A DNA stretch of 20,937 nt from positions 1-20,937 of the IMG/VR virus record IMGVR_UViG_2609459819_000002, one strand, 5' to 3'. The DNA comes from a virus (lineage: Duplodnaviria; Heunggongvirae; Uroviricota; Caudoviricetes). Below the pieces are notes generated by a model. That model was given only the letters and a program-made list of their open reading frames with translations. It did no database searches and had not been told where the DNA came from. Positions 11,306 through 12,546 of this stretch are shown here, piece after piece (the stretch's first letter is position 1; each line of letters opens with the position of its first letter). The position numbers and the translations under genes are program-made.

Positions 11306-11521
11306 TGTTTCGCCGCCGACGAAAGGCCGGGACGCTAATGATTAAAAACTTACATGGGAAATATTGTTATAAACAGTCAATTCCAAATAACTAAAAAATC
11401 TTATAACCAAGCGAATGGCCTTCAAAAACCAATACATGCAACTTGCATAAAACGATCTTTATCAATGAGTTACATGTATGGTTAAATAATATGCTTTAAG
11501 GACTAAGAGTATTACCAGCAG

Positions 11522-12325
11522 ATGACAGAAAAAGATAACATTGGTAAGTTAATTTGGCATATTGCTTGCGATGAATCTGGCATTGATGGACAACGTTTCT
11601 ACGGCTTTGGCAGTCTGTGGATGAAGTACCAACGCCGTGGGGATTTCTGTCAACTAATCAGAGAACTACGCAGAAAGCATGGTTTTTTTGAAGAAATAAA
11701 ATGGCAAAAAGCCCATTCAAAAAGATACTCTGAATTTTATCTTGAGCTGATCGACTTATTCTTTAGAGTTCCTTGGCTAGCTTTTCATTGTATCGTGGTT
11801 GAAAAATCAATAGTAAATAAGGCATTTCATAATGGAGATTATGACCTGGCAAGGAGAAAGCACTTCACAAATCTCATTACCACAAAAATTAGCTCTGTAA
11901 TTTCTGCACACCCTGAAAGAGACAGTTACTTCAGGATTGAAGTTGATCCTATCGCATCTCGTTATAAAAAGGCTGATGAAGAACTAAATGTTATTGCCAA
12001 TAACATATTGAATAGAAAATTTGGTCGTAAAGGGATAATCAGCAGTGTAGTGACAAAAGACTCTAAAGCATCTGAAAACATTCAGCTAGCCGATTTTTTC
12101 TTAGGTGCGGTTATGTGCGCATATCAAGGAAAAGCTTCATCTGAAGCCAAAATAAGAGTATCAAACTATGTTGCTTCATATTTAGGCTGGGATCACTTGC
12201 AATATGATACATGGCACACTGAGAGAAAATTTAATATCTGGTATTTTTATGATAAAACTCGAGGGCCACGAGATATAGAAACTCAAAATGTTAGCTTAAA
12301 GTATCCACTTCCCAAAAAGAAATAG
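11522..12325 (+). CDS. DUF3800-family protein (moron between Q and the lysis genes)
   Basis: 267 aa with N-terminal IACDESG and C-terminal QLADFFLGA motifs that I recognise as DUF3800 signatures. AT-rich; opposite strand to the late operon; preceded by a 216-bp AT-rich leader containing palindromes. Confidence 0.7.
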   Translation: MTEKDNIGKLIWHIACDESGIDGQRFYGFGSLWMKYQRRGDFCQLIRELRRKHGFFEEIKWQKAHSKRYSEFYLELIDLFFRVPWLAFHCIVVEKSIVNKAFHNGDYDLARRKHFTNLITTKISSVISAHPERDSYFRIEVDPIASRYKKADEELNVIANNILNRKFGRKGIISSVVTKDSKASENIQLADFFLGAVMCAYQGKASSEAKIRVSNYVASYLGWDHLQYDTWHTERKFNIWYFYDKTRGPRDIETQNVSLKYPLPKKK

Positions 12326-12347
12326 ACGTCGACCTCTCAGCCGACAC
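12312..12347 (-). terminator. Candidate tR'-like intrinsic terminator of the late leader transcript
   Basis: Minus strand GTCGGC-tgagag-GTCGAC stem-loop followed by GTCTATTTCTTTTT; overlaps the DUF3800 stop codon. Confidence 0.25.
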
Positions 12348-12444
12348 GGTTGGAGTCCCAGACCAATTATCGAGTCGAAGTTACCAACTTGGCGGTTATC
12401 TTTTGGGAGCCGCCCCTTCATTCCCAAAACCTTTATTGCAGAAA

Positions 12445-12473
12445 AATCTATATCCTAGAAATTGGATAGTCAA
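12445..12473 (-). promoter_or_regulatory. Candidate late promoter pR' downstream of Q
   Basis: Minus strand TTGACT (-35), 17-nt spacer, TAGATT (-10), about 75 bp downstream of the Q stop; lambda pR' has the same -35 as I recall. Confidence 0.3.
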
Positions 12474-12546
12474 CCCTTACTACATCCACGAACAGTTGCA
12501 CATACAACATTGGCAGAATATCAGATTTACATGAAATATATGCTTT

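Follow-up and report, generated by a model that had tools for sequence, protein, structure and literature searches.

A candidate DUF3800 nuclease gene and a lambda 6S-like RNA in a putative two-promoter cassette between Q and the holin gene of a lambdoid prophage

The viral stretch analysed here, IMG/VR record IMGVR_UViG_2609459819_000002 (Caudoviricetes; positions 1 to 20,937, hereafter the window), carries a gene for a 267-residue DUF3800 protein in the gap between the antiterminator gene Q and the holin gene, antisense to the lambdoid late region, which lies on the minus strand. Our comparisons indicate that the protein is probably a metal-dependent nuclease of RNase H-like fold and that its gene is inherited as part of what appears to be a two-promoter cassette, which combines the putative nuclease gene with a lambda 6S-like RNA and stands in place of the native late terminator. 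On balance, and with moderate confidence, we favour the reading that the predicted nuclease is cargo expressed in the lysogen, most likely for defence against other phages or mobile elements, and that gene and RNA form two convergent units of the terminator-replacing cassette. Public databases already list the gene and its candidate status. Neither Rfam nor the literature searched yielded a description of the cassette architecture or of the conserved 6S core structure.

Results

The DUF3800 gene lies in an inserted cassette

The ends of the cassette were read from Escherichia coli genomes that share its flanks (Table 1). In ~1,100 genomes with the same Q and without the DUF3800 gene, homology to the window ends at 12503, which is 44 nucleotides (nt) past the Q stop codon, so that the backbone runs to about +25 of the late promoter pR'. 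In ~950 genomes with the same holin and without the gene, homology ends at 11338. The gene is absent from ~95% of the prophages that share Q or the holin. Moreover, both junctions lie ~232 bp apart in strain Ecol_276 (locus L194, 903-1240), which provides the empty site, where Q is followed by a TTGCAA-17-TATATT promoter, two terminators (the first of them strong) and the holin gene. The covariance model of the RNA element described below finds no such element in this empty site (best score 2.4 bits); therefore, this Q type is normally without a 6S-like element, and the cassette brought the element in. The DUF3800 gene is a moron in the sense of Hendrix and Juhala, an extra segment of a conserved operon that is absent from sister phages and differs in GC content (0.37 vs 0.50). 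The initial annotation of this DNA had reached the same view from the sequence of the window, and ~1,000 E. coli genomes that share Q or the holin and lack the gene, together with the empty site read directly, now document it.

The late-strand order within the cassette is the element promoter P_el, the RNA element, the P1 hairpin with GUCUAUUUCUUUUU, the antisense of the DUF3800 gene and the antisense of the DUF3800 promoter, and transcription reaches the holin gene solely through DUF3800 antisense. Position and orientation had been given correctly in the initial annotation, as the PF06323 and PF16083 matches of the two neighbouring genes confirmed, and so had the marked AT-richness, the GC content being 0.36-0.39 over 11400-12400 and 0.47-0.50 on either side. 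Its description of a self-contained single gene did not hold for phage contexts, in which the gene belongs to a cassette with two promoters and a convergent 6S-like RNA. Judging from the sequence comparisons, the unit of inheritance appears to be this cassette, with its putative nuclease gene and lambda 6S-like RNA, in place of the native late terminator.

Table 1 Coordinates of the cassette, its parts and the flanking genes in the window.
Feature	Position	Strand	Remarks
Inserted cassette	11339..12502		1,164 bp; replaces the native pR'-proximal terminator (tR') region
DUF3800 gene	11522..12325	+	267 residues; ATG start; the one plus-strand open reading frame of the Q-holin gap
DUF3800 promoter block (predicted)	11448..11496	+	AAAACGATCTTTATCAA; -35 TTATCA 11459-11464, 17-nt spacer, extended -10 TGgTTAAAT 11479-11487
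12-nt inverted repeat	11432-11443 / 11468-11479		ATACATGCAACT / AGTTACATGTAT; 92% complementary; brackets the -35 of the DUF3800 promoter
P_el, cassette-borne element promoter (predicted)	12445..12473	-	TTGACT, 17 nt, TAGATT; predicted start ~8 nt ahead of the pseudoknot
pR', late promoter of the phage (candidate)	12535..12563	-	TTGCAA, 17 nt, TATATT; overlaps the Q stop codon; also in the empty site
Structured RNA element	12328..12429	-	~105 nt; conserved block; homologue of the lambda 6S core
Pseudoknot	12429-12422 with 12408-12401	-	Helix of the element
P4	12414-12410 / 12395-12391	-	Helix of the element
P2	12388-12384 / 12353-12349	-	Helix of the element
P3	12376-12373 / 12364-12361	-	Helix of the element
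P1	12345-12339 / 12334-12328	-	Helix of the element; GAGA loop 12338-12335
P1 hairpin and U-rich tract	12314..12347	-	GUCUAUUUCUUUUU; terminator-like; scan match 12347..12326
Antiterminator Q, 82/DLP12 type	12547..13329	-	PF06323, E=9e-94; RefSeq version 229 residues
Holin, LydA type, first gene of the lysis cassette	10988..11305	-	PF16083, E=8e-22; phrog_785

The non-coding block past the gene resembles the core of lambda 6S RNA

The gap between the DUF3800 gene and the holin gene measures 216 bp and the gap on the 3' side 221 bp, and within the latter lies the non-coding feature that is best conserved at the locus. A block of ~105 nt directly past the stop codon (12328-12430) is 75-92% identical where the proteins are 64-87% identical. 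Sensitive blastn aligned it with lambda 44646-44715 (87% identity over 69 nt), and covariance model R1 scored 110 bits in the window and 86.4 bits in lambda. The element as a whole aligns with ~44610-44720 of lambda (NC_001416), inside the transcript from pR' to tR', which is the 6S RNA. The pR' candidate lies ~100 nt upstream of it, and its final hairpin is terminator-like. Besides the window and lambda, 6S-like cores were found in loci L076, L083, L085, L091, L102, L103, L107, L121, L135 and L143. These data point to the element being the core of a lambda 6S-like late leader.

The five-helix structure was examined over 49 distinct sequences, in which 91.3% of the cells pair and 14 pairs have changed on both sides. 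Covariation was 0.245, compared with 0.099 in shuffles (none of 500 was as high) and no more than 0.075 after sliding of the partners; compensatory changes are also visible by eye in the alignment of the 3' block, including among the gene-linked copies. The late strand is the one that carries the structure. Only on this strand is the P1 loop a GNRA tetraloop (GAGA, GUGA or GGGA) and P1 lengthened by invariant G.U and U.G pairs, and over the whole structure G.U cells number 184 on the late strand against 34 on the opposite one. Minimum free energy folding of the single sequence recovered P4, P2, P3 and P1 on the late strand and not on the opposite strand. Our first reading of the block, an RNA of the 3' untranslated region in the DUF3800 sense, was ruled out by the G.U count, the late-strand GNRA loop and the late-strand helices. 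On this comparative evidence, the lambda 6S core is a conserved pseudoknotted RNA with three hairpins and a GNRA loop, common to lambdoid and P2-like prophages.

Rfam 15, including its DUF3800-I to -XI motifs, gave no match to the element in the window or in 12 related loci, either at the gathering score or with the threshold relaxed to E<=10. The matches otherwise obtained were the tRNA of the window and, in the P2/P4-like locus L076, which has a 6S-like element and no DUF3800 gene, a C4 antisense RNA and an isrK RNA side by side (7368-7565, minus strand; 81 and 67 bits). Lambda 6S RNA was sequenced in 1971. Two recent papers describe it as an RNA without known function; according to one, it is found in lysogens, associates with Hfq and gives bands of ~194 and ~121 nt.

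The P1 hairpin lies 2 nt from the DUF3800 stop codon, and the U-rich tract that follows it, read in reverse complement, gives the stop codon and the Lys codons of the protein tail. In the 12 nt after P1, gene-linked copies have on average 6.4 T (at least 7 in 30 of 48), while copies without the gene have ~3 and a separate terminator.

Each unit of the cassette has a predicted promoter

Upstream of the gene, a conserved block of ~45 nt (11445-11496) is 78-92% identical where the proteins are 64-87% identical (flank comparison). In an alignment of ~50 distinct upstream regions, the promoter block was near invariant with the pattern AAAACGATCTTTATCAA, 17 nt, TGnTTAAAT. This block would be a sigma-70-type promoter with a predicted start at ~11494 and a 5' untranslated region of ~28 nt, which agrees with the earlier suggestion that the gene is expressed from the lysogen. 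The promoter was missed by the consensus promoter scan because position 2 of its -10 is T. The 216-bp leader with palindromes noted in the initial annotation proved right in part: the gap is real and has one 12-nt inverted repeat, but the untranslated region would comprise only the ~28 nt after the conserved promoter. The left arm of the repeat is confined to the E. coli lineage and the right arm falls inside the promoter spacer; the repeat (11432-11479) may be an operator or another regulator-binding site. Of the two signals expected to flank a moron, an upstream promoter and a downstream terminator, the window has the conserved promoter block, and the terminator scan found none on the plus strand; in some relatives, a bidirectional terminator follows the element.

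On the late strand, most gene-linked subgroups, the P2-like ones among them, show in the alignment a -35/-10 pair that lies at the P_el distance and has an unrelated spacer sequence. In loci L024 (~6930-7080) and L012 (~6930-7100), the cassette promoter and the element are preceded on the late strand by a lambda-type pR' with an AACGAT pause sequence and its own short terminator; therefore, the element promoter is distinct from the Q-dependent promoter.

The DUF3800 protein is a candidate nuclease

The protein contains WHIACDESGIDG and NIQLADFFLG, from which the initial annotation had recognised the family, and its residues 16-197 match PF12686 in the Pfam profile search (42.9 bits against a gathering score of 21; E=1e-10). 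It also matched phrog_3732, a family of unknown function (E=2e-137), and, over nearly its full length (residues 13-243), PADLOC PDC-M04A (PDLC04353; E=6.5e-35), in line with the defence link suspected before. The RefSeq counterpart (99-100% identical), which also lies between Q and a holin gene, is named 'DUF3800 domain-containing protein'. PDC-M04 belongs to a set of 145 untested 'phage defence candidates', which were picked out by their embedding in BREX, DISARM or type I restriction-modification loci.

The predicted structure, with a predicted local distance difference test (pLDDT) score of 90.5, has the RNase H-like fold that had been envisaged, RNase HII/H2A being nearest. The family profile retrieved nothing under E=0.5 from the PDB sequences, so a solved structure of a relative is not detectable by sequence. 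In the model, D17 and E18 end strand 1, D142 follows strand 4 and D191 is within the C-terminal helix, a layout that, by the order of secondary-structure elements and not by residue-level superposition, appears to be that of the RNase H carboxylates. The N-terminal DE motif (D17-E18) and the C-terminal QxxD motif (Q188-L-A-D191), which are described for DUF3800 (PMC7736814), are both invariant in 41 homologues. The protein is thus probably a metal-dependent RNase H-like nuclease, a candidate whose activity and substrate we infer.

The database search retrieved 501 homologues, and the subfamily is tight (260-270 residues, 53-87% identical to the query). Hosts include Enterobacterales, Vibrio, Shewanella, Aeromonas, Alteromonas and Methylophaga and reach as far as Myxococcales. 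An alignment of 41 sequences, down to 53% identity, has 55 invariant columns, among them D17, E18, H89, D142, D152, E153, D180, S181, Q188 and D191. Past the Pfam domain, a C-terminal extension (residues ~200-267) is conserved in the subfamily, and the extreme C-terminal tail is variable, basic and Lys-rich.

This constraint bears on the idea that the cassette is selfish or neutral, persisting by addiction or as a needed terminator while its protein benefits neither host nor phage. Such an account would draw on the replacement of the native terminators, with which loss of the cassette could deregulate lysis, and on the rarity of the cassette in E. coli. It fits poorly with the 55 invariant columns over 41 sequences, which include all putative catalytic residues, with an open reading frame that is intact in >500 homologues of many orders and with the repeated recruitment of the gene into defence loci. 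We regard it as very unlikely.

The gene and the RNA are tightly linked in phages of enterobacteria

A pattern scan of IMG/VR found 76 stretches that carry the element, mostly adjoining a DUF3800 gene. Covariance-model searches of the viral loci found exactly one convergent copy of the element just past the stop codon in 63 of the 64 that could be assessed, the sole exception being a Vibrio integron cassette. Among loci from genomes, the same model found the element in 10 of 10 from Enterobacterales and in 0 of 29 others. The identities of protein and element were correlated (Spearman 0.86 over 50 distinct loci, the pairs not being independent). In phages of enterobacteria, gene and RNA form one unit of inheritance; elsewhere the protein exists without this RNA.

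The element is also found by itself. Nineteen copies had no DUF3800 match on the same strand; several of them lie at locus ends, outside the assessment, and for the remaining ones a profile search of every open reading frame detected no DUF3800 at E<=10. These solo copies sit between a late-strand gene of ~200 residues and the lysis genes, and the former is Q-like by position only. An RNA specific to DUF3800 was ruled out by the ~19 gene-less copies and by the presence of the element in lambda.

We weighed whether the RNA and the protein are functional partners, in which case the RNA would be a twelfth DUF3800-associated class that binds the nuclease or pairs with its mRNA, acting as an antitoxin-like inhibitor (of the type I 3'-overlap or the type III kind), a sensor or a guide, with infection releasing the nuclease. 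Eleven unrelated structured RNAs are already known beside DUF3800 genes, and the DUF3800 effector of retron type VII is restrained by an RNA/DNA molecule. The near-complete linkage in phages, the co-divergence of 0.86 and the compensatory changes among gene-linked copies would all be expected of partners. Moreover, the RNA has its own promoter in the cassette even in P2-like contexts without Q, and the convergent, abutting 3' ends make the 3' region of the mRNA complementary to the RNA. In the other direction, members of the same subfamily (61-68% identical) lack the element in 29 non-enterobacterial loci and in bare integron cassettes; the protein occurs without the element, and therefore it does not need this RNA. 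Likewise, the element stands alone in lambda and ~15-19 other viral loci, with DUF3800 not found at E<=10. A simpler cause of the linkage is that the cassette must bring a leader and a terminator, because it replaced tR'. A partnership therefore seems unlikely to us, if worth keeping in view.

A bolder version would make the 6S-like RNA and the DUF3800 nuclease a working pair, in which the RNA restrains or directs the nuclease, and the solo 6S RNAs of lambda and its relatives orphan immunity or decoy RNAs against the DUF3800 nucleases of rival prophages. We hold this to be doubtful. If true, it would give lambda 6S RNA its first function and provide a mechanism for all DUF3800-associated RNA motifs.

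Relatives occupy cargo slots and defence islands

The region is carried by 92 of 5,426 complete E. coli genomes, and a megablast search with the 1,241-bp region found no match among 50,697 phage records; as far as these sequence collections indicate, the cassette is known from prophages only. DUF3800 relatives are encoded in 71 IMG/VR loci. In 40 distinct phage contexts, the right-hand neighbours identified by Pfam are mostly on the opposite strand and convergent with the DUF3800 gene. The commonest families are Q of PF03589 (8), PF06530 (7) and PF06323 (1), DUF1133 (3), the P2 replication protein GPA (3) and DNA methylases (4). Other viral loci have the DUF3800 gene after terminase and portal genes of P2 type. 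The P2-like positions are, we presume, the old/tin cargo region of P2.

A survey of 47 loci from species-representative genomes extended these contexts. Marine gammaproteobacteria carry the gene as an integron cassette, in which its stop codon merges into an attC-like TAACAAAGCG...GGCGTTA; in Vibrio furnissii (L191, 4778-8205), four attC-like repeats are spaced 650-1,600 nt apart. Integron-cassette homologues are 64-68% identical and were also seen in L155, L158, L161, L163, L164, L167 and L050. More distant homologues sit in or beside known defence systems. The gene lies between a DNA methylase gene and the DISARM gene drmD in Polyangium (L175, 2104-8495), straight after Drt1a and ahead of an NYN/LOTUS nuclease in Arsukibacterium (L172, 135-5594), after an Hhe/PDC-S37 helicase-nuclease in Colwellia (L162, 81-3956) and next to a TOTE primase-helicase in Methylophaga (L157, 4825-7218). 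In Alteromonas, it precedes a DitA-like gene. The cargo slots thus appear to be of three kinds, namely the Q-lysis slot behind three or four unrelated Q families, the P2-like replication/portal neighbourhood, and Vibrio integron cassettes together with defence islands.

The recurrence of cargo slots and defence islands makes a consistent, circumstantial case for a role in defence or in conflict between elements. The defence hypothesis of the initial annotation was reasonable, and the finding of homologues in both phage cargo and defence contexts (Q-lysis slot, P2-like prophages, integrons, DISARM, DRT1, Hhe-like, TOTE and DitA-like) now supports it better; the support from context is good, the role itself unproven.

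The same contexts speak to whether the nuclease serves the life cycle of its own prophage, by removing primers or R-loops in replication, processing the late leader or degrading host nucleic acid. An RNase H-like fold would suit such tasks, and the gene adjoins the late leader RNA; the late leader of lambda is reportedly processed in vivo, and 6S runs as two bands. Yet the gene is antisense and has its own promoter, an arrangement set for expression while the late genes are off, and it is missing from ~95% of the prophages with the same Q or holin. In addition, it is AT-rich relative to the phage, and copies in integron cassettes, embedded in DISARM or adjacent to DRT1 occur without phage genes. 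We consider a function of this kind improbable.

Other genes of the late region and further AT-rich islands

The late-strand order around the cassette is RusA, YbcO, a NinB-like protein, Q, the 1,241-bp gap, the holin, a 158-residue open reading frame and Rz, with Bor next on the plus strand. The 158-residue frame has no Pfam match of its own, and its RefSeq copy (89-100% identical) is annotated as a GH24 lysozyme. The Bor lipoprotein gene (9739-10035, plus strand), just past Rz, is AT-rich (GC ~0.38) and opposite in strand to the late operon. With it, the late region has two antisense morons. A 176-residue open reading frame (4880-5407, minus strand) between the tape-measure-like and DNA-circulation genes forms a second AT-rich island (GC ~0.35); it has neither a Pfam nor a PADLOC match and may be a further moron. 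A third AT-rich stretch, in the early region (15085-16573), codes for a BD-FAE/alpha-beta hydrolase (347 residues, plus strand) and an EmrE-like small multidrug resistance protein (128 residues, minus strand), which are cargo rather than phage functions. At the end of the window (18316-20937), the tyrosine integrase gene (18316-19476) adjoins a tRNA-Thr(CGT) gene (19494-19569, minus strand) and a gene of the aldehyde-dehydrogenase family (417 residues). This region is the end of the prophage, with a tRNA integration site.

Discussion

In the model that we propose, the DUF3800 mRNA would be made from its own conserved extended -10 promoter, and on the late strand the 6S-like RNA would be made from P_el and pR' and end at P1 and the U-tract. 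In the lysogen, the constitutive transcripts from pR' and P_el would stop at P1 and yield 6S-like RNAs of ~120 and ~210 nt. P1 would act as a substitute tR' that keeps the lysis genes off, and the nuclease gene would be spared antisense transcription and expressed from its own promoter. Upon induction, Q would load at pR', and the modified polymerase would pass P1 and transcribe ~1 kb of DUF3800 antisense before it arrives at the holin gene. This read-through antisense would silence the nuclease during the lytic growth of its own prophage.

Several observations weigh against this model or its supports. The U-tract past P1 is weak in 18 of the 48 gene-linked copies, and therefore P1 cannot be the terminator everywhere; loci of the L051 type carry a terminator, not a promoter, ahead of the element. 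The late-strand RNA is no stabler than shuffled sequences (z = 0.0), the evidence for its structure being comparative alone, and the correlation between protein and element identities is computed from pairs that are not independent. For the DUF3800 mRNA, a terminator scan of the window detected no intrinsic plus-strand terminator. The PDC-M04 candidate comprises several genes by definition, and PADLOC found no PDC-M04 partner among 10 neighbouring proteins of the window. The literature searched reports no defence, toxicity or nuclease activity for any DUF3800 protein.

Among known systems, retron type VII uses a DUF3800 protein, modelled on RNase H2, as its effector (PMC7736814), and some Cas12a2/a3 and VI-F loci are accompanied by a TPR-DUF3800 protein. 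The present locus shares with them the Pfam family, the N-terminal DE motif, the RNase H2-like fold and an immune context with a non-coding nucleic acid. In contrast, it has no reverse transcriptase, msr/msd, TPR domain or CRISPR array, and retron-linked DUF3800 proteins lack QxxD, which the present subfamily keeps along with the C-terminal extension of residues ~200-267. A retron of type VII was not indicated here, the neighbours of the gene being Q and the holin gene rather than a reverse transcriptase gene and the Rfam scan of 10900-12900 showing neither a retron RNA nor any other Rfam RNA. With PDC-M04, the locus shares the match to the gene A hidden Markov model, and the Polyangium relative, between the methylase and DrmD, is embedded in the manner by which PDC candidates are defined. 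Whereas PDC-M04 is a multi-gene candidate, a second PADLOC-recognised gene was not found in the window, and the companion here is an RNA.

Eleven unrelated structured RNA motifs adjoin DUF3800 genes, with no fixed side or orientation; terminators often accompany them, and no function has been proposed (PMC5737381). Like these DUF3800-I to -XI motifs (Weinberg et al. 2017), the present element is a structured RNA with its own predicted terminator, beside a DUF3800 gene and on the opposite strand; unlike them, it has no Rfam match even at E<=10 and also occurs DUF3800-free as a lambdoid late-operon leader. The statement of the initial annotation that DUF3800 has no assigned role was fair, but it left out retron type VII, the Cas12a2/a3 loci and these 11 motifs. 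Like lambda 6S and StxS of the Shiga toxin (Stx) phages, the predicted RNA would be short and made constitutively from an antiterminated late promoter; a resemblance of StxS to lambda 6S has not been reported. In lambda, a separate tR' lies ~60 nt past the element, whereas here the last hairpin doubles as the terminator-like site and there is an extra promoter.

As cargo of deviant composition between Q and the holin gene, absent from sister phages and with its own promoter, the gene is comparable to the classical morons of the Q-lysis slot, stx of Stx phages and nmpC of DLP12, and to bor; nmpC is also antisense to the late operon. Classical Q-lysis morons differ in that the insertion here removed the native tR' and supplied a leader and a predicted terminator, and in that the product is a predicted cytoplasmic nuclease instead of a toxin or an outer-membrane protein. 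In the type I toxin-antitoxin pairs txpA/RatA and bsrG/SR4, convergent RNAs overlap at their 3' ends and the toxins are small membrane peptides. The present pair is also borne by a prophage, with a convergent small RNA whose 3' end is predicted to meet that of the mRNA, but its protein is a 267-residue DUF3800 protein.

DUF3800 proteins recur in immunity, in retron type VII, Cas12a2/a3 and VI-F loci and as a PADLOC candidate, and beside 11 orphan structured RNAs. The E. coli cassette is small, has ends defined to the nucleotide and comes with a natural empty-site control, which makes it a convenient experimental entry to this family. The lambda 6S core appears in it as a unit that moves with the gene of a predicted nuclease. 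The cassette also shows a moron replacing a late-gene terminator instead of merely adjoining it, an arrangement by which the expression of the cargo would be tied to the choice between lysis and lysogeny.

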